In this document: positions 1,686 to 16,835 of the stretch, in pieces
How positions within the stretch are numbered: position 1 is the first letter of the stretch
How the letters are laid out: each line of letters starts with the position of its first letter
Source of the DNA: an uncultured virus (IMG/VR IMGVR_UViG_3300020050_010858)
Taxonomy: Duplodnaviria; Heunggongvirae; Uroviricota; Caudoviricetes
Length of the DNA: 20,000 nucleotides
Direction: 5' to 3' (one strand)
IMG/VR virus record: IMGVR_UViG_3300020050_010858
Notes under the pieces: generated by a model
Seen by the model: the letters and a program-made list of their open reading frames with translations, nothing else
What the model was told of the DNA's origin: nothing
Database searches by the model: none
Translations under genes and position numbers: made by a program

Positions 1686-1878
1686 GACAGTAGGGCGACC
1701 GGAACTAATCGATGAGCTCCATTTTCTCTACGGATCAACAAGCGCAAACGACCTGATGAATATTCTAACCGACCTCGCCCAAATATCCGATTTAGCCGTC
1801 GATCTATCCGACGTGCCGGATTCGGATTTGATGCGGGCTAGAAATCGCGCGCTTAACTCTGAAAGGAAGGCGGCATGA
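1672..1878 (+). CDS. hypothetical protein (68 aa)
   Basis: In-frame ATG at 1672; stop overlaps the next ATG. Confidence 0.55.
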   Translation: MRRSRTVGRPELIDELHFLYGSTSANDLMNILTDLAQISDLAVDLSDVPDSDLMRARNRALNSERKAA

Positions 1879-2204
1879 AAGTTTATGCAAAAAATCAACC
1901 TTCACCTGTGGCTTCCGCTCTACCGTACACCCAGCCTCAACGAATACAGAGTCGGACACTTCCGCCGCCGTATGAAGCTGAAAGAGGAGGCGAGGTGCGC
2001 ATTGACGTCGTCATTACTCGACGCTCTTGCCGACTACTCGACGACGACAATCTGTACGGAGGAGCGAAGCCGCTTATTGATAGCCTGCGCGAGCTTGGCC
2101 TCATCCCGGACGACGACACGAAAACGATCAAGCTTGAATGCCGGCAGGTCCGGGTCTCGAGTCGTGCACAAGAAGGTGTTGAGCTTGAAATAAAGCATCC
2201 ATAG
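1875..2204 (+). CDS. RusA-like Holliday junction resolvase, catalytic half
   Basis: VVITRRSCRLLDDDNLYGGAKPLIDSLRELGLIPDD matches D-x-D-N...K...D.L...G.I.DD; GGAAGG RBS-like sequence upstream. Confidence 0.7.
   Translation: MKVYAKNQPSPVASALPYTQPQRIQSRTLPPPYEAERGGEVRIDVVITRRSCRLLDDDNLYGGAKPLIDSLRELGLIPDDDTKTIKLECRQVRVSSRAQEGVELEIKHP
1885..2193 (+). CDS. overlapping ORF carrying the RusA-like N-terminal motif
   Basis: LWLPLYRTPSLNEYRVGHFRRRMKLK resembles the RusA L.LP..PS.N...H..R N-terminus; different frame from 1875..2204. Confidence 0.5.
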   Translation: MQKINLHLWLPLYRTPSLNEYRVGHFRRRMKLKEEARCALTSSLLDALADYSTTTICTEERSRLLIACASLASSRTTTRKRSSLNAGRSGSRVVHKKVLSLK

Positions 2205-3155: not shown

Positions 3156-3671
3156 ATGAAAGCTCATCAAAGCAGTACTGGAAAAAACGACGAGTGGTTA
3201 ACGCCGCGATGGATATTGGAACCGCTTGGTGCGTTCGATCTCGATCCTGCCTCACCCGTGAGGCGGCCATGGCCTACCGCTCGCCATCACATGACCGTTG
3301 AGGATGATGGTCTGGCTAGCAAGTGGTTTGGTCGCGTATGGCTAAATCCTCCGTTCAACCGCTATCAACGGCCTAAGTGGATGCAGGCAATGGCGGGGCA
3401 TGGTAATGGGATCATGCTGATTCCTGCTGCCACAGAGACCGCGGCCTTTACGAAATGGGTCTGGAAAGAAGCGAATGCAGTTTGCTTTGTGGCAACCCGG
3501 CCACACTTTCACTTAGTCACCGGCGAGCGAGCAAAGGCCAACTGCGGCTGCTCAATCGCGCTAGCGGCCTATGGCGAGGACAACGCACGAATCTTAGAGC
3601 GTAGCAGGCTCGGAGCCACACTCCGCCTGCGCGCCCACCACCCAACCCATCAACCGAGTGAGCGAAAATGA
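3156..3671 (+). CDS. phage DNA N6-adenine methyltransferase (small Dam-like family)
   Basis: DEWLTP, FDLDPAS, DDGL..KW.GRVWLNPPF motifs. Confidence 0.85.
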   Translation: MKAHQSSTGKNDEWLTPRWILEPLGAFDLDPASPVRRPWPTARHHMTVEDDGLASKWFGRVWLNPPFNRYQRPKWMQAMAGHGNGIMLIPAATETAAFTKWVWKEANAVCFVATRPHFHLVTGERAKANCGCSIALAAYGEDNARILERSRLGATLRLRAHHPTHQPSERK

Positions 3672-5413: not shown

Positions 5414-5607
5414 CTATGCCGATAGAAATGAGGCGATGGCTGAAATATCAACTCGAAAAAGCAAGGCAGCCGATTCCGGAATCTGATCGCAAATATCCAC
5501 TCAGGGTCATGCTGTATGAGTCCAATCGTGAAATGATGGAGGAGTGGGATAAATGGATCGAATCGCTGCCCTCTTTTGATCAGCCGAACGATAAAATCCT
5601 GCCATGA
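5359..5607 (+). CDS. hypothetical cassette protein (82 aa)
   Basis: AAGGAGG RBS before ATG 5359; ATGA overlaps at both ends. Confidence 0.7.
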   Translation: MNPEQSVDGAVLAPSTVRPMPIEMRRWLKYQLEKARQPIPESDRKYPLRVMLYESNREMMEEWDKWIESLPSFDQPNDKILP

Positions 5608-5680
5608 CTCCCGCGCCCTTCCAGCTCGATTCTGAACCGACTCCCTCGCGGGAGTCATTGGCAGCGATGCCTTGTTGTGG
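5583..5680 (-). repeat. attC-like site 5 (98 bp)
   Basis: GCCGAAC GATAA AATCCTGCCATGACTCCCGCG ... CGCGGGAGTCAT[T]GGCAG[C]GAT GCCTT GTTGTGG. Confidence 0.9.
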
Positions 5681-6377
5681 ATCTTTGGATCTGCGCTTGG
5701 CTGACTGCATGGAGGTGATGAAAACCTTCCCGGATGGCCACTTCGACCTTGCGATAGTCGACCCGCCTTACGGACTCGGTGACGCTCTGGTCGCTGGTGG
5801 AACATGGTCGGTTAAGTATCAAGCCAAGGGGGCGAAATGGGACGTGAAGCCGGAGGCTGAATACTTCGAAGAACTCCAGCGCGTGGCGAAAAACTGGATC
5901 ATATGGGGCGCGAACTACTACTCGCAACACCTCCCGCCAACGCGGGGCTTCGTCGTCTGGCACAAGCCGAACATGGAAGGAATGCACACGATGGCGAACT
6001 GTGAGCTGGCATGGACGAGCTTCGACCGGAATGCCAAGACGGTATCAATCACGCGGCCAAACGAAGACAGAATCCACGTCTGCCAGAAGCCGGTGAAGCT
6101 CTATGACTGGCTCCTGGCAAACTTCTCGAAACCGGGCGAGCGGGTGCTGGATACGCACATGGGAAGCGGAAGCATCGCCATTGCGGCTCACTACGCCGGG
6201 GTGCATCTGACGGCCTGCGAGATCGACCCGGAATACTTCCACGCGGCCAAGGCGCGAATCGAAAAGGAGACGCGCCAAATGGACTTCTTCAATCTCCACA
6301 ACGACGGAACTCAGCGACCCGGCTCACCGGACGGGTCGCTTGCAACTGAAACGCGAAAGCCGGGTTCGCTGAAGTGA
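5604..6377 (+). CDS. N6-adenine/N4-cytosine DNA methyltransferase (beta-type motif order)
   Basis: DLAIVDPPYG catalytic motif, IIWGANYY, H..QKPVKLY, VLDTHMGSGS SAM-binding motif, EIDPEYF. Confidence 0.92.
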   Translation: MTPAPFQLDSEPTPSRESLAAMPCCGSLDLRLADCMEVMKTFPDGHFDLAIVDPPYGLGDALVAGGTWSVKYQAKGAKWDVKPEAEYFEELQRVAKNWIIWGANYYSQHLPPTRGFVVWHKPNMEGMHTMANCELAWTSFDRNAKTVSITRPNEDRIHVCQKPVKLYDWLLANFSKPGERVLDTHMGSGSIAIAAHYAGVHLTACEIDPEYFHAAKARIEKETRQMDFFNLHNDGTQRPGSPDGSLATETRKPGSLK

Positions 6378-7459: not shown

Positions 7460-7698
7460 AATGCCCTCAATGCGGCTACGAAATCGAGTCCCAGCAAAGG
7501 CGAGCTGCAAATTCTCGCTGGTCAAAAATGACCCCCGAACAGAAATCCGCCCAAATGTCCAAAATCCGCAAAAAGGGGATTAAGAAAAAGAAGAAACCCC
7601 TTAGCAAGAATGGATACGACAACACAGACCCCTTCCGTTGCCACCAGTGCCTTGTTAGGATGCCCGTTCTGCGGTGGCGAAGCGAGCGCAACCGGTGA
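7456..7698 (+). CDS. small basic protein with N-terminal CPQC, possibly DNA-binding
   Basis: MKCPQCG...SRWSKMTPEQKSAQMSKIRKK; the C-terminus runs into the next cassette. Confidence 0.55.
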   Translation: MKCPQCGYEIESQQRRAANSRWSKMTPEQKSAQMSKIRKKGIKKKKKPLSKNGYDNTDPFRCHQCLVRMPVLRWRSERNR

Positions 7699-7921
7699 AG
7701 TGAAATACTCCGAAACCCATGAAGCGTGGTGGAAGGATGGAACACGCATCCGTAAATCCTACTTCTGCAACTGCATGAAGTGCGGAGTAACCAACAAGGG
7801 TCTGTGCGGACATCAGACGCCTGCGCTGGCTGTCAGACATTGGAACACCCGCAGTCAGGCTAACGCAATAGGTGAGGCACGGGCGGACACCGACACCTCG
7901 CCGCAAGATCAAACTCTCTAG
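7610..7921 (+). CDS. Lar-like (restriction alleviation) Zn-ribbon protein
   Basis: LLGCPFCGGEA ... CMKCG ... AVRHWNTR pattern. Confidence 0.75.
   Translation: MDTTTQTPSVATSALLGCPFCGGEASATGEVKYSETHEAWWKDGTRIRKSYFCNCMKCGVTNKGLCGHQTPALAVRHWNTRSQANAIGEARADTDTSPQDQTL
7635..7660 (-). repeat. attC-like half-site (right arm only)
   Basis: CCGTTGCCACCAGT GCCTT GTTAGGA resembles the right arms of sites 1, 5 and 7; no complementary left arm upstream. Confidence 0.55.
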
Positions 7922-11922: not shown

Positions 11923-12366
11923 GTGGCTCCAATGTATAACGTAAATTCTTCAGGAAATAGCCTGAGCACATCCATTTTGGCGGGCAAGAATTCGGGCGGC
12001 TCTCCCTCTCCGAATCTCACCGGCTTGTCGCCTATTGATTCGCTGATAACGACCCTTACTCAATCCATTGCGCAGCAGGGAACGCTTGCTCGGAAGTCGC
12101 TCTTGCAGTCCCGGAAAGCCCTTAAGCAGCAGCGCAAACTCGGTAAAGCCGAGCTCGCATTTTATCAGAAACAAGCCGCGCAGATGCAGGTTCAACCAGC
12201 GCCGGAAGTTTCTAGCCTTTCGAGCGCAGAAGTTTTGCAAGCACAACGCCAGGTTTCGATCGATGCCTCACGGAAGAAGGGCCTTAGAAAATCCATAATG
12301 GCAGGGGACACAGGGGCTTCACCGCGGTTTCAAGGATCAGGAGCGTCGGCTCCTATTTTAGCATGA
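11923..12366 (+). CDS. hypothetical protein preceding the portal
   Basis: Ser/Gln/Ala-rich with RKKGLRKSIMAG; ATGA overlap with the portal; start could be ATG 11932. Confidence 0.65.
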   Translation: MAPMYNVNSSGNSLSTSILAGKNSGGSPSPNLTGLSPIDSLITTLTQSIAQQGTLARKSLLQSRKALKQQRKLGKAELAFYQKQAAQMQVQPAPEVSSLSSAEVLQAQRQVSIDASRKKGLRKSIMAGDTGASPRFQGSGASAPILA

Positions 12367-14042
12367 CGCGCAAATCCCCGATAGACATTGCTCAAGGCGT
12401 TCTGGATAGATGGGATGCATTGTCGACGGAGCTAGGAATTTGGCGAACAAACTGGCAAGACATCGCCACATATATTCAGCCTCGCAAGGCTAGCATTCAG
12501 ATATCGCGTTCATACCCTGACACCAATACTCAGGCACAACTTTTCACATCGACGGCCATCCGGGCCAATCAGACGTTAGCAAATGGCATGGTGTCGATGA
12601 TGACACCAGTAGAGTCGCCCTGGTTTGCCTTCGATGCGCCCGCGAGCCAGAAGACATCTGGGCCTGTAAAGGCGTGGTATTCAGAATGCACAGAGATCAT
12701 TCAAGCGCTTTTAGCGGCTTCGAATTTCTACACCGAAGTGCATGAAATGTTTTTGGATCGTGGCGGGTTCGGCACGGCTGCAATGCATATCGAGGTCGGC
12801 AAGAAAAACCTCTTTAACTTTACCAATCTAGGCATTGGATCTTACGCGCTCTCTGAAAACGACGAGGGGTATGTAGACAGTGTCATTCGTGAAATGCCGA
12901 TGACGATTAAGCAGGCCGTTCAAAAATTCGGTATCGATAACGTCAGTGAGAAGACCCGCAAAAAATTCAACGACCCAGGAAACAAAAAGGGCCGTGAAGA
13001 AAAGATCACAATCATTCATGCGATTTATCCTCGTGCTGATGGTGAATATGAGGCCGGCAAGATAGGTCCAGAAAACATGCCGATCGCCTCTTGCTACGTG
13101 GAAAAAGAGGGCCCACATCTCATTGAAGAAGGCGGCTACCAAGAGATGCCGACACTTGCGACTCGTTACCTCAAGTGGGGCGATGGGTTTGTTTACGGAT
13201 GGTGCCCTTCCTGGTTTGCGCTACCGGATGCCCGGCAATTGAATTTCTTGGAAAAGATGATGGATGCTCTCGCTGAGAAAGCCGCATTCCCTCCGATGAT
13301 TGCGCCGGCCTCTATGGAGGGTGTAACGACGGTGGATGTTCGCGCCAACGGGGTAACGTACGTTGAAGGCGACGAGCAGGCGACGTTGCGCGAGTGGCAG
13401 ACTCAAGGAAGATACGATATCGGCAAGGATCGAGTACTGCTCAAAGAGCAGGCTATCAAAGAAGCTTACCACAATGACCTGTTTCGCATGTTCAGCGAAT
13501 ACGAGGGCCCGCAGATTACAGCGTACGAGGCCAGTCTGAAGCAGGGAGAGAAGCTTATTCAGTTCTCCCCTACGAACACCCGACTTACTACTGAGTTTTT
13601 CAATCCTCTCTTGCAGCGCCTTTGGGGGATTGCTATTCGCGCAGGAGTACTTCCGCCACCACCGGAAGAGGCTGTTCAAATTGGAGCCGATCAGAAGGGT
13701 TATATCCCTGAGCCCGAGATCACCTATACCTCTCGAATCGCACTGGCGATCAAGTCTATAGAGACAGATGCATTTCTTAAGACGATTCAAATTTTGTTGC
13801 CTATATCGGAACTAAGGCCGGAAGTTTTTGACTACCTCAACTTCGACCAGGCGACTCCGGACATCGCTCGTAACAACGGGACCCCGTCGCGGTGGATAAC
13901 ATCGGACGAGGAAGTTCAAGCCATTCGCCAGGGACGAGCGGCGGCCGCGGAACAGGCACAAGCGATGGAGGCGCAGTCTATGGCAGCCAATACCATTAAA
14001 ACGGCTGCGCAGGCGCAATCTGAGACCCTCAAAGCAGCATGA
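12363..14042 (+). CDS. portal (head-tail connector) protein, podovirus T7/BPP-1-like type
   Basis: 559 aa; A...LANGMVSMMTP...PWF, SNFY.EVHE...D.GGFGTA, YGWCP, ITAYE motifs; follows the terminase. Confidence 0.93.
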   Translation: MTRKSPIDIAQGVLDRWDALSTELGIWRTNWQDIATYIQPRKASIQISRSYPDTNTQAQLFTSTAIRANQTLANGMVSMMTPVESPWFAFDAPASQKTSGPVKAWYSECTEIIQALLAASNFYTEVHEMFLDRGGFGTAAMHIEVGKKNLFNFTNLGIGSYALSENDEGYVDSVIREMPMTIKQAVQKFGIDNVSEKTRKKFNDPGNKKGREEKITIIHAIYPRADGEYEAGKIGPENMPIASCYVEKEGPHLIEEGGYQEMPTLATRYLKWGDGFVYGWCPSWFALPDARQLNFLEKMMDALAEKAAFPPMIAPASMEGVTTVDVRANGVTYVEGDEQATLREWQTQGRYDIGKDRVLLKEQAIKEAYHNDLFRMFSEYEGPQITAYEASLKQGEKLIQFSPTNTRLTTEFFNPLLQRLWGIAIRAGVLPPPPEEAVQIGADQKGYIPEPEITYTSRIALAIKSIETDAFLKTIQILLPISELRPEVFDYLNFDQATPDIARNNGTPSRWITSDEEVQAIRQGRAAAAEQAQAMEAQSMAANTIKTAAQAQSETLKAA

Positions 14043-14335
14043 TTGAAGACGTAAAACTCGCCGTTGAGAAGCGTCGGCGCAAGCAGATTCAAATCAATGC
14101 TTATCACAGGACATTCGGGACGCCTGACGGCAAGATAGTTCTTGCGCAGCTTTTAGAGCAGTTCCGATTTGATCGGCCGACATTCGTAAAAGTCGCCGGG
14201 AAATACTGCCCTATTGAAGCCGCAATTCGTGACGGAAACAGGGAAATTTATCTACACATATTGGAATTCCTCAAATTACCCGTCGATGGCGACGCGAATA
14301 TCAATACCGCAAAACCAGCAGTGAAAGCAGAATGA
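14039..14335 (+). CDS. Bbp19-like small protein following the portal
   Basis: YHRTFGTPDGKIVLAQL ... AIRDGNREIYLHI. Confidence 0.7.
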   Translation: MIEDVKLAVEKRRRKQIQINAYHRTFGTPDGKIVLAQLLEQFRFDRPTFVKVAGKYCPIEAAIRDGNREIYLHILEFLKLPVDGDANINTAKPAVKAE

Positions 14336-14724
14336 AAATTACTCTAGAAAACAATCAATTGTTCAATGAAGGAGAGCTCATTGGCACCTATGACCCAGAT
14401 CGAAATGTCCTGCATATGCCTAAACGCTTTTCTCCTAAACTTTACAAGCCCATTGAGGCCGCGGTCGGCAGGAAGCCGGAATATGATTTTGGCGCACCAA
14501 ATCCCCTAACAGAAATTCACAATCAGCAGGGTCGACAAGTGGTAAGTCAGGAGGTCCATAACCTCCCACGCGCGGGTTCGAATCCCGCCCCTGCAACCAT
14601 TTTGGAGCCGCCCCAAGATCCGCGTTACGGCGACAAAACTATTGAGTGGGCGCAATGGCTTAAGGACACAGATCCAAAAGCTTTCGAGGCCCGGTTCAAG
14701 GGCCGCAATATCACTCTCGAATAA
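14332..14724 (+). CDS. hypothetical protein (130 aa) containing a tRNA-like sequence
   Basis: ATGA overlap upstream; fills the gap before the scaffold gene. Confidence 0.7.
   Translation: MKITLENNQLFNEGELIGTYDPDRNVLHMPKRFSPKLYKPIEAAVGRKPEYDFGAPNPLTEIHNQQGRQVVSQEVHNLPRAGSNPAPATILEPPQDPRYGDKTIEWAQWLKDTDPKAFEARFKGRNITLE
14525..14599 (+). tRNA. tRNA(CAT)-like cloverleaf (Met/fMet-like, possibly degenerate)
   Basis: Acceptor AGCAGGG/CCCTGCA, D stem GAC/GTC with TGG loop, anticodon stem GGAGG/CCTCC with loop TCCATAA, T stem GCGGG/CCCGC with TTCGAAT, 3' ACCA. Confidence 0.8.
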
Positions 14725-14757
14725 ATCAACAATCAAATAGCCCGAAAGGACACCTAT

Positions 14758-15654
14758 ATGCCTGAACTAGCAGAACAACCCGCCGCATCACAACCCTCAA
14801 CACCAGCCGCCGAGATAGCCCCTCAAAGTCCGGCTGCTGCATCATCCGAATTCATCTGGTCCGGCAAGGAAGGAAAACTCTCTGATGGATGGGCCGACCA
14901 TTTGCCGGCGGAAATGAAGCCTCAAGCCTCTGCCATCGCTGCATTGGTGGACAAATACCAGGGAAACATCCCGCAGCTTCTCAAGGGCGCCTTGAACCTT
15001 CAGACGGTTGCCGGCCGGAAGATGGGCGCGCCGCAAGCAGACTGGACGCCGGAGCAGGTTTCGGAATATCGCCTCGCTCATGAAGTGCCAGAGAGTGCGG
15101 ATAAGTATGACTTGACTCCTGCGGAAGGCGCATTGCCTGAAGGCGTGACGTGGAATCCGGAGGTATTCGCACCAATTAAAAATTGGGCGCACAAAAACCA
15201 CGTATCTGCTGCGGCGCTTAAGGAGTGGACAGGCATCCAGGCAAGCGTCGATCGAGCCCGTCAGCAGGCGGCCATCGACATGGTCAACGAGGCAGACACG
15301 AAAACCATCGCTGATCTTAAGAAGGAGTTCGGAGAATCACAATTTGATAAGTCTGTGCAAGACGGATTTCGCGCGGCGAAATTCTTCGGTGTAGAAACCG
15401 ATCCAAACAAAAACCCCATTGCGAACCATCCGGAGTTTATCAAGTTCGCTGCCCGCGTTGCTAAGCAAATGGGCGAGAGCAAGCTTGCCACAATCACAAG
15501 TGGCGCCTCTGAGCAGCCCGGAAAACTTCGCGCAACAGAGATCATGAATCCGAATGGGCAAGATCCGTTGACCGCCGATTATCATGGCAAAAATGGCTAC
15601 GAAAAACAGGCAGCCGCTCAAAGGGTTCTGCATGACCTAATGGCAACTGGTTAA
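14758..15654 (+). CDS. capsid scaffolding/assembly protein
   Basis: Pro/Ala-rich N-terminus, VPESADKYDL, LKKEFG..FD, NHPEFIKF; lies between portal and capsid; AAGGA RBS. Confidence 0.8.
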   Translation: MPELAEQPAASQPSTPAAEIAPQSPAAASSEFIWSGKEGKLSDGWADHLPAEMKPQASAIAALVDKYQGNIPQLLKGALNLQTVAGRKMGAPQADWTPEQVSEYRLAHEVPESADKYDLTPAEGALPEGVTWNPEVFAPIKNWAHKNHVSAAALKEWTGIQASVDRARQQAAIDMVNEADTKTIADLKKEFGESQFDKSVQDGFRAAKFFGVETDPNKNPIANHPEFIKFAARVAKQMGESKLATITSGASEQPGKLRATEIMNPNGQDPLTADYHGKNGYEKQAAAQRVLHDLMATG

Positions 15655-15681
15655 AAATTTCGGCAGTCTTCGACGCCGATC

Positions 15682-15730
15682 GCGCCCTCTCAGGTTTTGC
15701 TTTTTTTCCCTGAGAGGGCGCTCTTTTTCT
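15682..15730 (+). terminator. intrinsic terminator after the scaffold gene
   Basis: 13-bp perfect stem GCGCCCTCTCAGG / CCTGAGAGGGCGC followed by TCTTTTTCT. Confidence 0.7.
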
Positions 15731-15738
15731 CTTAAAAA

Positions 15739-15752
15739 TCAGATTCACTTGC
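15739..15752 (+). promoter_or_regulatory. 14-bp motif TCAGATTCACTTGC, copy 2
   Basis: Intergenic, just after the terminator and upstream of the capsid gene. Confidence 0.55.
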
Positions 15753-15929
15753 GTTAGATAGTAAATCTTATTGACGACGTAATTTCTGGCACAAATCAAA
15801 TTATACCAAGGCAGACACCTTCTTTTTGAAGCCTGCTCCCGGTTCAAACCTAAGCCGAAGACCCCCACAGGGACACTCGGGAGGCATGGGAGCAGTTCAA
15901 CTTCAAAAATTTAACCAGAAGGAAATCTA

Positions 15930-16835
15930 ATGCCCGCAATTACAACGATTCCTGCGTTTTATCCAACGCAGTTCGAAACAAACTGGATGACTCTCGCCCA
16001 GCAAAAAGAGTCTCGCCTGATGTCCACTGTTACCCAACAGCGCGTCAACGGCAAAGAAAAGCGCATGAACCAGCTCGGTCAGCGCACCATGCAGCAGATC
16101 ACTGGCCGCGCTCAAGCGACCCGTATCAGCGATCAAACTACAGCCGCCCGTTGGCTCTCGCCTTATCCGTTCGACGACGCATCGTTGTTCGATCGTTGGG
16201 ATGAAGAATTCCTCGGAGAAATCGTGCTTCCTCAAAGCGATATCATATCGCAGATGGTCGCCGGTTATAATCGGTCGGTCGATCAAACAATCCTTACTGC
16301 GGCAGTCGCATCGTCCCGCACTGGAACGGACGGACTCACGCTCACAGCCCTTCCGGCTGGTCAGCTTGTAGCCGTTGATTTCGTGGAGCAAGGCACGGCT
16401 GCAAACAGCGGCATGACCATCGCGAAGCTTCGCCAGGCGAAGTATATCATGGATGTTGCCGATGTGGACGACGAGGAACGATACCTCGCCTATTCCGCAA
16501 AGCAGGTTCAGGACCTTCTTCGGACAACCGAAATCACGAACTCCGACTATAACACCATTAAGGCACTGGTCACTGGCCAGATCGACACCTACATGGGGTT
16601 CAAGTTCAAGCGCGTATCGGCGGCTCTGCTGCCTTATGTGACGGCAACGGACGTTCGTGCGTGTGTGGCTTATGCCAAGTCCGGCATCGCTCTCACCGAC
16701 ACCGGCGTAAAGGCCAGCATCGTGGTTCGCCACGACCTGTCTGATGCGCTTCAGGTTCGCGTGGAAGCCGCTTACGGCGCAACCCGCCTCGAAGAGGTCA
16801 AGGTTGTGGAAATCTTCTGTGACGAATCGCCATAG
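15930..16835 (+). CDS. major capsid protein
   Basis: 301 aa after the scaffold; LAQQKESRL, ITNSDYNTIKALVTGQIDTYMGFKF, GATRLEEVKVVEI; AAGGA RBS. Confidence 0.9.
   Translation: MPAITTIPAFYPTQFETNWMTLAQQKESRLMSTVTQQRVNGKEKRMNQLGQRTMQQITGRAQATRISDQTTAARWLSPYPFDDASLFDRWDEEFLGEIVLPQSDIISQMVAGYNRSVDQTILTAAVASSRTGTDGLTLTALPAGQLVAVDFVEQGTAANSGMTIAKLRQAKYIMDVADVDDEERYLAYSAKQVQDLLRTTEITNSDYNTIKALVTGQIDTYMGFKFKRVSAALLPYVTATDVRACVAYAKSGIALTDTGVKASIVVRHDLSDALQVRVEAAYGATRLEEVKVVEIFCDESP

Follow-up and report, generated by a model that had tools for sequence, protein, structure and literature searches.

An initiator-like tRNA gene in frame within a head-module gene of an uncultured tailed phage

The window, a stretch of 20,000 nucleotides from an uncultured virus of the Caudoviricetes, contains a complete tRNA(CAU) gene with initiator-like features that lies in frame inside a protein gene of the head module. 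We think that this tRNA gene is probably functional, yielding an initiator-like tRNA of the phage, and that its bases are translated as well, forming the disordered linker of a head-module protein. The tRNA, its conservation and covariation, the surrounding gene, the in-frame layout and its recurrence in relatives are all evident from the sequences compared. The following features of the window are referred to below.

12363..14042, + strand: portal (head-to-tail connecting protein); Pfam PF12236, E 5.4e-114; PHROG 332
14039..14335, + strand: Bbp19-like small phage protein, the upstream neighbour; Pfam PF25181, E 2.4e-12
14332..14724, + strand: 130-aa head-module gene (P0001) of an unannotated family; 46 homologues, alignment A2
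14332..14490, + strand: predicted N domain, aa 1-53; AlphaFold2 model, conserved in full-length homologues
14491..14616, + strand: predicted linker, aa 54-95; AlphaFold2 model, variable in length and sequence among homologues
14525..14599, + strand: tRNA(CAU), initiator-like; ARAGORN, Rfam, fold, parse and covariation
14617..14724, + strand: predicted C domain, an EPPxDPxxGDKT..W motif and then two helices; A2 and AlphaFold2 model
14758..15654, + strand: scaffold-position gene, the downstream neighbour; PHROG 3742, E 1.6e-18; PHROG 458, E 2.1e-8
15681..15722, + strand: G+C-rich hairpin and then a T run in the scaffold-capsid spacer; direct sequence reading
15930..16835, + strand: major capsid protein; Pfam PF19821, E 7.2e-66

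The scaffold-position gene has a weak match to a PHROG labelled protease, and in relatives the homologous position precedes the tRNA. The spacer element at 15681..15722 occupies the slot that holds the tRNA in 61 related loci; the slot of the window has no tRNA. Against GenBank phages, blastn gave a 107-nt capsid match and otherwise no relative for the region, and tblastn with P0001 found no match. The early region of the window is temperate-looking, with RusA-like and Lar-like genes.

The tRNA gene and its initiator character

ARAGORN calls a single tRNA in the 20 kb window, a tRNA-Met (cat) at 14525..14599 on the + strand. Rfam RF00005 matches 14525..14596 over model positions 1-71 of 71 at 48.4 bits (E 8.5e-8; the gathering cut-off is 29 bits), and the isolated 75 nt, equal to 25 codons, fold into a cloverleaf of -30.1 kcal/mol (z -3.12) that none of 200 shuffles equals. 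The 75-nt tRNA(CAT) cloverleaf noticed in a preliminary description of this DNA, which had named ARAGORN as a check and a very low covariance score as a reason for doubt, is borne out by these results. A permissive Rfam scan of 14000..16100 returned nothing besides the tRNA. No promoter- or terminator-like sites were found beside it, their counts being no higher than in shuffled controls.

The acceptor strands of the window tRNA are AGCAGGG/CCCTGCA, with A.A at 1:72 followed by G2:C71 and C3:G70; the discriminator is A73 and the CCA is encoded. The D stem (GACA/AGTC) has A11:U24 paired and A.A at 13:22, the anticodon stem GGAGG/CCTCC ends in A29:U41/G30:C40/G31:C39, the variable loop has 5 nt, and the T stem GCGGG/CCCGC closes the T loop TTCGAAT. 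The anticodon loop is TCCATAA (UCCAUAA), with U32 and with C at position 33. This parse recovers the details listed in the preliminary description, i.e., perfect anticodon and T stems, the TTCGAAT loop, the encoded CCA, A:A at 1:72, the discriminator A, C33 and the AGG/CCT end of the anticodon stem.

U33 is near-universal in tRNAs. The window tRNA departs from it, as do five more of the 26 distinct tRNAs of its family, and C33 is present in four distinct copies from the non-coding downstream slot. We considered whether the reading frame forces C33 and rejected this, since the canonical loop would likewise leave the phase free of stops and non-coding copies have C33 too. C33, U32, the A.A at 13:22 and the A.A instead of the usual C.A at 1:72 could each impair tRNA function.

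A73 and A11:U24 are features of bacterial initiator tRNAs, and the window tRNA has both, together with an unpaired 1:72, G2:C71 and C3:G70. According to passages of PMC5389676, the 1:72 mismatch and the pairs 2:71 and 3:70 form the formylase determinant. The unpaired 1:72, A73, G2:C71, C3:G70 and the anticodon CAT are each found in 26/26 distinct family tRNAs, A29:U41 and G30:C40 each in 25/26, and the 11:24 pair is A:U in 12/26 and U:A in 14/26. Position 31:39 is U.U in 13 distinct tRNAs with a CCAGT/TCTGG anticodon stem, all in the downstream position. Neither the window tRNA (A-U/G-C/G-C) nor the family as a whole follows the rule of three G-C pairs in the anticodon stem. The preliminary description had counted the AGG/CCT stem against an initiator, an objection that fails: the same passages of PMC5389676 describe au/GC/GC as a variant that initiators of alphaproteobacteria and some mycoplasmas have naturally, and single out G30 as the base that matters most.

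Seven contigs from three runs match 14571..14603 only and then continue as other tRNA(CAU) sequences; their unmatched upstream letters include a CAT anticodon loop, in some cases flanked by GGG and CCC. The metagenome-assembled genome G001, which carries family locus L323 with its tRNA, yielded no host initiator among the 30 of 44 tRNA matches examined; two other CAT tRNAs among these both have a paired 1:72.

Across the family's 26 distinct tRNAs, 91.4% of cells pair, and both sides have changed in 14/21 pairs, including all five of the anticodon arm (5/5 covarying). This covariation is reached in 0/500 shuffles, with slid controls at 35-49%. The three embedded copies alone differ in 18% of columns and have 92.1% of cells paired, with 8/21 pairs changed on both sides, no pair changed on one side only, and 0/500 shuffles as good. 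We interpret these compensatory changes, which answer the earlier suggestion of a covariation check among relatives, as an indication that the tRNA fold is under selection.

The surrounding gene and its recurrence

The ATG of ORF 14332..14724 overlaps the stop of the upstream gene (ATGA). The ORF continues stop-free across the tRNA, whose first base falls at the second position of codon 65, and codons 65-89 are translated as QQGRQVVSQEVHNLPRAGSNPAPAT, confirming the uninterrupted reading reported before. An exhaustive HMMER search of 1.84 billion representatives returned 46 homologues of P0001 at E <= 0.001; a word-index protein search with P0001 gave no match. The aligned homologues (A2) consist of a folded N domain and a GDKTP..W C domain with a variable linker between them, and G100, D101, T103 and W109 are invariant. 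AlphaFold2, run with 26 sequences, predicts four strands, a helix and a strand for the N domain (pLDDT about 96) and confidently predicts the C-terminal helices. The linker has no predicted secondary structure (pLDDT 51-69); its residues 65-89 derive from the tRNA, and in the window it is nearly all tRNA. For 26 members no Pfam or PHROG family was found, bar one chance-level match, and a Foldseek search of the PDB returned nothing at E <= 0.001.

The stretch from the tRNA to the GD motif contains neither an ATG nor a GTG in frame, and its one TTG has no Shine-Dalgarno sequence; with no usable start after the tRNA, the C domain would therefore require read-through. Homologues that lack the tRNA (P0002, P0003, P0005 and others) have N and C domains in one chain. 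The preliminary description had left room for the ORF not being a real gene, and the 46 homologues with conserved N and C domains show that it is a real gene of two domains. The alignment of homologues, also proposed there, places the tRNA codons in the variable linker, and two close relatives, P0015 and P0020, are 53% identical with one 26-residue gap that coincides with the tRNA peptide. Frames that stay open across a tRNA are not rare, as unrelated tRNA translations in the protein searches illustrate (P0018, P0046, P0074). The finding is significant because conserved protein domains flank the tRNA, not because the frame is open.

DNA searches keyed only on the C-domain motif (among them a metagenome search with alignment A4) gave 155 loci including the window. 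All tRNAs that ARAGORN finds in them are on the + strand, have the anticodon CAT and occur at two positions only: in frame within the gene (5 loci, of which 3 are distinct), or between the scaffold and capsid genes, 0.98-1.12 kb further downstream (61 loci, of which 29 are distinct). None among the 155 loci is out of frame or at another position, and in 66/66 loci with a tRNA it lies sense-strand inside the head operon, before or just after the scaffold gene. These sequences suggest that a large group of uncultured podophage-like viruses has this tRNA family as a regular component of its head module.

The embedded in-frame tRNA is also present at DNA loci L008 and L140, where its site and frame match those of the window. 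L140 encodes a complete protein of N domain, tRNA and C domain, and in L008 a start codon lies 19 nt upstream of the tRNA; P0013, P0052, P0053 and P0054 likewise have a start codon upstream of it. Across 14039..14760, L001 and L006 do not differ from the window (100% identity) and so add nothing to the comparison. A tRNA-type peptide stands 9-35 residues before the motif in 17/76 motif-bearing proteins, and in at least 17 distinct protein clusters a peptide derived from a tRNA occupies the corresponding site, with the frame unchanged. The embedded DNA copies are three distinct ones, the other embedded cases being metagenome protein predictions, and the embedded frequency is biased upward because the protein queries contained the tRNA peptide. 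In P0058 and P0059 the segments at the same position lack the His (CAT) codon. A viral scan with the tRNA-bearing alignment A3 mostly returned unrelated phage tRNAs read as protein; the motif occurred there only in L086, L087 and L124, none of them with an embedded tRNA. A loose DNA pattern, "T loop then GD motif", gave at least 119 stretches, with the motif in none among the matches listed. As an observation beyond the preliminary description, the same tRNA family is a fixture of the head module, usually between the scaffold and capsid genes.

Interpretation and alternatives

Transcription, processing, charging, an initiator role and an effect on the mRNA are what we infer from this arrangement. 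Since neither a promoter nor a terminator of its own accompanies it, the tRNA would be transcribed as part of a late polycistronic RNA. In the lineage of the window it sits just upstream of the C domain of the GDKTP-motif protein with the frame running through, and a given transcript may be translated through the tRNA into the 130-aa protein. Alternatively or afterwards, the tRNA-maturation enzymes of the host may release it, RNase P forming the 5' end and 3' trimming proceeding to the encoded CCA. Such a release would separate the portal/Bbp19 section of the message from its scaffold/capsid section. Once free, the tRNA could receive methionine, undergo formylation and serve in initiation during late infection. 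That tRNA processing and ORF translation compete for one RNA counts against this explanation.

Three options had been put forward in the preliminary description. Dual coding gains support from the two-domain ORF and from compensatory changes in diverged tRNA copies, and the tRNA as linker from its place in a predicted disordered linker and from the clean in-frame gap between relatives; the two are mutually compatible. Excision of the tRNA, severing the late mRNA between portal and scaffold, would follow from the release outlined above. A decoy against anticodon nucleases fits loosely with the variable flanks of the anticodon loop. The five runs in which the sequence occurs have it as assembled contigs (shares 0.07-0.12), which cannot show RNA ends; the contigs of four runs have no joints and no end pile-ups. 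A 222 nt contig from an RNA library (X4) covers 14512..14719 unbroken; because DNA may have been carried over, we do not count it towards transcription.

It is rather improbable that the tRNA is an ordinary intergenic gene between two separate small genes, whose N and C parts are made independently and whose open frame is incidental. A public gene call of 40 aa (P0004) is identical to residues 91-130, relatives have proteins of about 58-65 aa with the C domain alone (L052, P0020, P0022, P0023), and tRNA sequences often lack stops in this frame (P0018, P0046, P0074). However, the N domain runs to the tRNA without a stop, a C-domain start after the tRNA would have neither ATG, GTG nor Shine-Dalgarno sequence, and the tRNA-free homologues join both domains. 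The three distinct embedded DNA loci are all continuous and in the same phase (3/3), start codons precede the tRNA in L008, P0013, P0052, P0053 and P0054, and P0015 and P0020 are alike before as well as after the gap. About equally unlikely is that the cloverleaf serves mainly as an RNase P and 3'-processing signal which punctuates the late operon RNA, the cut setting the relative stability of portal-side and capsid-side messages, rather than as a translating tRNA. The sense-strand location in the head operon at 66/66 loci, the lack of an own promoter or terminator, and the hairpin and T run in the alternative slot of the window agree with it, and C33 and the frequent U.U at 31:39 would then matter less. 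Against it, CAT, A73, G2:C71, C3:G70 and the unpaired 1:72 are invariant (26/26) and matter for charging or formylation, not for RNase P, and the anticodon arm is kept by 5/5 covarying pairs. A processing signal is compatible with a working tRNA that is also translated, and both roles could hold.

A decaying captured tRNA, nonfunctional as RNA and now mere spacer codons in the linker, would account for C33 and for the A.A at 13:22 and at 1:72, for a linker that tolerates almost any sequence in relatives, and for the loss of the His (CAT) codon in P0058 and P0059. We find it very improbable, as the three embedded copies remain 92.1% paired with eight compensated pairs despite differing in 18% of columns, and the score is well above the Rfam cut-off. 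The non-Watson-Crick 1:72 is universal in the family, hence a kept feature and not damage, and C33 recurs in four distinct downstream, non-coding copies. There is slighter chance still that the region is the relic of an attachment site, with 14571..14603 as the attP core through which the phage would integrate into a tRNA gene of its host. The seven contigs from three runs that match only this stretch before continuing as other tRNA(CAU), and the temperate-looking early region (RusA-like and Lar-like genes), would suit such a relic. Yet the cloverleaf is full, with its own covarying 5' half and not just the 3' part, integration in the middle of the head operon would split it, and none of the 38 window ORFs scanned matches an integrase. 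What is shared corresponds to the conserved T arm and acceptor strand, in which likeness is expected within one tRNA type, and no prophage junctions at 14571..14603 were found in a bacterial genome.

Returning to a working tRNA within a translated gene, we tentatively raise a stronger version, which we think possible, though less likely than not: the 75 bases may be an obligatory dual-use element, translated first and then cut, the cut freeing the initiator tRNA and uncoupling the low-copy portal from the high-copy scaffold/capsid message. The unusual anticodon loop of the freed tRNA might protect it from initiator-tRNA nucleases of the host. Protein output, tRNA supply and operon stoichiometry would then all be governed by one sequence, and with its slots before and after the scaffold gene this phage group would have answered one problem in two ways.

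Significance and comparison with known systems

Annotation rules usually hold tRNA and protein-coding genes to be mutually exclusive, and gene callers mask tRNAs, which explains the truncated 40-aa call P0004. The literature searched, with few subscription journals covered, describes neither an in-frame tRNA gene inside a phage CDS nor a tRNA-Met between scaffold and capsid genes. The locus offers a conserved phage counter-example, in which a whole tRNA gene is read in frame to give a protein linker. Two families come to light with it: a sizeable one of unannotated proteins with the GDKTP..W motif, and a distinctive one of phage tRNAs in which 1:72 is always unpaired. Should both products be made, the locus would be a compact natural system for translation versus tRNA maturation on one RNA, would show how far coding constrains tRNA sequence and the reverse, and would bear on why a large group of uncultured phages keeps an initiator-type tRNA in the head operon.

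The window tRNA resembles bacterial tRNAfMet in CAU, the unpaired 1:72, A73, G2:C71, C3:G70 and A11:U24, and its stem A29:U41/G30:C40/G31:C39 resembles the alphaproteobacterial and mycoplasmal variant in the passages of PMC5389676. Its T arm and 3' acceptor strand are near-identical to those of other CAT-anticodon tRNAs in the runs, some of which have the GGG...CCC stem. It differs from bacterial tRNAfMet in A.A instead of C.A, C33 instead of U33, its being encoded by a phage and its place inside a CDS. As with the tRNA genes of the T4 cluster and of mycobacteriophages, in the sections of PMC10264068 that treat them, it is phage-carried with variable anticodon-loop flanks, which that source proposes to be an evasion of host anticodon nucleases. 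In contrast to the tRNAs treated there, which lie between CDSs and are usually clustered, and to phages of that data set, which by the same sections generally avoid tRNA-fMet, the window has a single initiator-like tRNA inside a gene of the head operon. With tRNA-dependent lysogeny (PMC10865867), the likeness is a single tRNA in a temperate-looking phage that could replace a host tRNA disrupted by integration; the differences are that no integrase or attachment site is seen in the window, that the tRNA is in the late operon and that its type is kept across many phages.

Spurious ORFs across tRNAs (P0018, P0046, P0074) share the ...AGSNPAPAT ending, the usual translation of T arm and acceptor strand; unlike these, the stretch in the window is flanked by conserved foldable domains that form one chain in tRNA-free homologues. 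In mixed tRNA-protein operons of E. coli and in mitochondrial "tRNA punctuation", tRNAs are co-transcribed with mRNA and released by RNase P. The window tRNA would likewise be sense-strand in a polycistronic transcript, without its own promoter; there, however, the tRNA lies between coding regions, whereas here it is in frame and its release would destroy the message. Compact animal mitochondrial genomes have overlaps of tRNA and protein genes that are mostly partial, with tRNAs that are often degenerate. The same bases serve tRNA and CDS in both cases, but the cloverleaf of the window is complete and canonical, includes the CCA, belongs to a phage and is conserved among diverged homologues.

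The embedded tRNA and its genomic setting

ARAGORN calls a single tRNA in the window, and the Rfam tRNA model aligns over its full length with 14525..14596 at 48.4 bits (cut-off 29, E 8.5e-8), which is not a very low covariance score. A rescan of 14000..16100 with permissive Rfam filters gave no match besides this tRNA. Folded in isolation, the 75 nt form a cloverleaf of -30.1 kcal/mol (z -3.12), equalled by none of 200 shuffles. The acceptor stem AGCAGGG/CCCTGCA has A.A at 1:72 and is followed by A73 and an encoded CCA. The D stem GACA/AGTC holds an A11:U24 pair and A.A at 13:22, the anticodon stem GGAGG/CCTCC closes the loop TCCATAA with C at position 33, and a variable loop of five bases precedes the T stem GCGGG/CCCGC with its loop TTCGAAT. 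The surrounding ORF 14332..14724 is open across the tRNA, from which its codons 65-89 are derived (QQGRQVVSQEVHNLPRAGSNPAPAT). The preliminary description, which had reported a complete tRNA(CAT)-like cloverleaf translated without a stop, was correct in all its descriptive statements on 14525..14599 (ARAGORN, Rfam, fold, parse and ORF reading).

Features of the head region in the window
12363..14042, plus strand: portal gene (PF12236)
14039..14335, plus strand: Bbp19-like gene (PF25181)
14332..14724, plus strand: motif ORF, between the Bbp19-like and scaffold-position genes
14525..14599, plus strand: tRNA-Met (cat)
14758..15654, plus strand: scaffold-position gene
15681..15722: 13-bp G+C-rich hairpin, then a T run, in the spacer 15655..15929
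15930..16835, plus strand: major capsid gene (PF19821)

All clear window genes lie on the plus strand, and the DNA is that of a phage. The early genes are SSB-like, endonuclease VII-like and primosomal, together with two for DNA methyltransferases (3156..3671 and 5604..6377), a Lar-like one for restriction alleviation (7610..7921) and one for a RusA-like resolvase (1875..2204). This lambdoid-style early region suggests that the phage is, or once was, temperate. Small terminase, large terminase, portal, Bbp19-like gene, motif ORF, scaffold-position gene and major capsid gene then follow in this order, the ATG of the motif ORF overlapping the stop of the Bbp19-like gene (ATGA). No relatives of the region were found among GenBank phages.

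The surrounding protein and recurrence of the in-frame layout

HMMER, run exhaustively against 1.84 billion representatives, matches 46 proteins to P0001, the 130-aa product of the motif ORF, at E <= 0.001, and 8 of them at <= 1e-10. An alignment of 26 family sequences (A2) displays a common architecture of an N-terminal domain, a variable middle and a C-terminal domain, in which G100, D101, T103 and W109 of the motif EPPxDPxxGDKTP....W are invariant. AlphaFold2 on this alignment predicts four strands, a helix and a strand in residues 1-53 (pLDDT ~96) and two helices in residues 104-122, while residues 54-95 (pLDDT 51-69) are without secondary structure. The tRNA-coded residues 65-89 lie entirely within this linker, and in the closest tRNA-free homologues, P0002 (48% identity) and P0003 (45%), the linker at this site is unrelated and differs in length. 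As judged from the alignment and the model, a real two-domain gene surrounds the tRNA, which lies in frame in a predicted disordered linker. The family has neither a Pfam nor a PHROG model, nor a fold match in the PDB, and its gene has a fixed place between the Bbp19-like and scaffold genes. A public gene call of 40 aa (P0004) covers the C part of the window protein alone, the product expected of a gene caller that masks tRNAs. The refuting case named in the preliminary description, that the ORF is not a real gene, is countered by the 46 homologues with their conserved N and C domains: ORF 14332..14724 is a real gene.

We collected 155 loci, of which 79 viral, 61 metagenome and 8 metagenome-assembled or draft-genome loci were baited with the C-domain motif only; 6 earlier loci (portal and P0001 queries) and the window complete the set. 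Loci were classed by scripted ARAGORN, and counted as distinct when different in the 91 nt starting at the motif.

Position of the tRNA in the 155 loci
Within the motif-gene open frame: 5 loci, 3 distinct (window = L001 = L006; L008; L140)
0.98-1.12 kb downstream of the motif: 61 loci, 29 distinct
No tRNA, downstream sequence of 1250 nt or more: 62 loci, 42 distinct
Locus too short to classify: 27 loci, 21 distinct

Every tRNA that ARAGORN found in these loci has the anticodon CAT, lies on the plus strand and occupies one of the two positions; none is out of frame, on the opposite strand or of another anticodon. L140 encodes the full protein of N domain, tRNA peptide and C domain. The motif gene of L008 is without the N domain, its ATG lying 19 nt ahead of the tRNA and overlapping the end of the Bbp19-like gene. 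In all three distinct embedded loci, the tRNA begins at the second base of a codon. By sequence comparison, the embedding recurs with fold and frame both kept. The contigs that carry family loci L319-L326 were binned as Verrucomicrobia (4), Caulobacter, Gemmatimonadaceae, Myxococcales and Geminisphaera; bins are an unreliable guide for phage contigs, and no hosts are assigned from them.

A protein profile search with the tRNA-bearing members gave 53 matches at E <= 1e-5 among 6401 candidates. The GD..W motif is present in 76 of the 87 collected proteins, and 17 of these 76 have a tRNA-type peptide (His at the codon of the anticodon, followed by G-S/T-x-P..A-T) that lies 9-35 residues ahead of it, a count of recurrence and not of frequency because the queries contained the tRNA peptide and the pattern demands His. 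Partial or altered cases are P0050, P0058 and P0059. The latter two, seen as proteins only, have a tRNA-like peptide at the same site without the His (CAT) codon and may be altered or decaying copies; P0059 has the TEIH-x-Q junction of the window and a segment as long as the window's tRNA peptide. P0015 and P0020 are 53% identical over their full length with a single gap of 26 residues, exactly the tRNA peptide, and share the residues ahead of it; therefore translation begins upstream of the tRNA and runs through. Of all single comparisons, this pair is the cleanest.

Selection on the fold, initiator-like character and the downstream copies

The other position is typified by the following tRNA:
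L052 3524..3594: tRNA(CAT), 6 nt past the scaffold stop and 184 nt ahead of the capsid start; same slot in 60 other loci (e.g., L191, L184, L173)

This downstream phage tRNA(CAT) family seems to be undescribed. In the window, the corresponding slot is the spacer 15655..15929, where the hairpin and T run are followed by an A+T-rich stretch ahead of the capsid gene. The hairpin escaped the consensus terminator scan, its loop being longer than the 8 bases that the scan allows. A strong hairpin in the alternative slot fits some RNA-level punctuation being wanted near the scaffold gene, which is only a hint.

Across 26 distinct tRNA(CAT) sequences (A5; 65 instances, the later-found L323 not in the set), 91.4% of cells in the cloverleaf are paired and 14 of 21 pairs have changed on both sides. 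Covariation scores 0.323 versus 0.124 in shuffles (none of 500 as high), and only 35-49% of cells are paired when partners are slid by 1-3 columns. The three embedded copies (A6; mean column identity 82%) are 92.1% paired, with changes on both sides in 8 of 21 pairs and on one side in none; none of 500 shuffles was as good, and slid partners were 43-52% paired. Stem covariation, proposed in the preliminary description as a check, is thus present in both sets. Judged by it, the tRNA family is selected as tRNA. That the embedded copy is a decaying relic is very unlikely, since compensated pairs are not the pattern expected of decay.

The embedded copies all have a five-base variable loop and an encoded CCA, which together bring the gene to exactly 75 nt (25 codons). 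Neither trait occurs in any of the 23 distinct downstream copies, which have a variable loop of 4 nt and no encoded CCA. These common traits point to one embedded lineage. The acceptor-stem types TGCGGGG and CGCAGGG occur across both positions, so exchange between positions is possible.

The window tRNA has A11:U24, an initiator trait, but differs from the bacterial initiator by A.A instead of C.A at 1:72 and by U32 and C33, the usual loop residues being C32 and U33. C33 is not a by-product of coding, because it is found in four distinct downstream, non-coding copies. Positions 32, 33 and 38 vary across the family, and PMC10264068 links such loop variation to evasion of anticodon nucleases. 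It also states that tRNA-fMet is generally avoided by the phages of its data set. All 26 distinct tRNAs have a non-standard 1:72 (U.U 15, C.A 5, C.U 4, A.A 1, C.C 1) together with A73, G2:C71 and C3:G70; A29:U41 and G30:C40 are each present in 25 of 26, while 31:39 is variable (U.U mismatch in 13 of 26). According to PMC5389676, bacterial initiators are marked by a 1:72 mismatch, the main formylase determinant together with 2:71 and 3:70, and by three G-C pairs at 29-31:39-41, with natural au/GC/GC exceptions in alphaproteobacteria and some mycoplasmas; of these positions, it ranks G30 as the most crucial. The anticodon stem in the window is exactly the au/GC/GC exception.

Seven contigs in three wastewater runs match 14571..14603 only (T arm and 3' acceptor strand; 1-2 differences, depths ~7 to 300), which implies that the 3' third of the phage tRNA is common with other tRNA(CAU)s in the samples. 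Upstream of the match, these contigs include an anticodon loop with CAT, which in some of them lies between GGG and CCC as in the standard initiator stem, and these other tRNAs apparently include standard initiators.

Proposed expression, alternatives and comparison with known systems

The comparisons establish a canonical tRNA gene that belongs to a family of phage tRNAs linked with the head operon. Because a scan of its flanks in the window revealed no promoter-like or terminator-like sites, we infer that the tRNA is co-transcribed with the late operon. Each transcript would then be either read through by ribosomes or cut by tRNA-maturation enzymes, a cut that would part the portal-side cistrons from the scaffold and capsid cistrons. 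The released tRNA would be charged, formylated and used in initiation.

The run data are assembled contigs. X4, a 222-nt contig of an RNA library in which DNA carry-over is possible, spans 14512..14719 unbroken. Contigs of three runs break just 5' of the tRNA (14506..14513): X3 ends at 14506, X2 starts at 14513, and X4 starts at 14512 after 14 unmatched letters. Assembly may have broken here, the tRNA part being common with abundant bacterial tRNAs, or the place may be the mosaic junction of a unit of tRNA and C domain.

The open frame across the tRNA might be incidental to two separate genes, which we regard as unlikely: there is no stop ahead of the tRNA and no start after it, homologues have N and C domains in a single chain, and the P0015/P0020 pair argues likewise. 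A cloverleaf serving only as a processing signal is about equally improbable, given that neither the anticodon nor the determinants of charging and formylation vary, although processing is compatible with our preferred reading, a probable working initiator-like tRNA gene that is also translated as a linker, and both could hold. Least probable of all is the core of a phage attachment site (attP), at odds with the full cloverleaf, the position in mid-operon and the lack of an integrase match among the 38 window ORFs scanned.

In the literature searched (most subscription journals being outside its scope), neither an in-frame tRNA gene inside a phage coding sequence nor this head-module tRNA family is described. 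Overlaps of tRNA and protein genes occur in compact animal mitochondria, and co-transcription of tRNAs with mRNA is textbook knowledge. The layout of the window would surprise specialists in phages or tRNA; the comparative evidence behind it is solid, and it can be tested directly.
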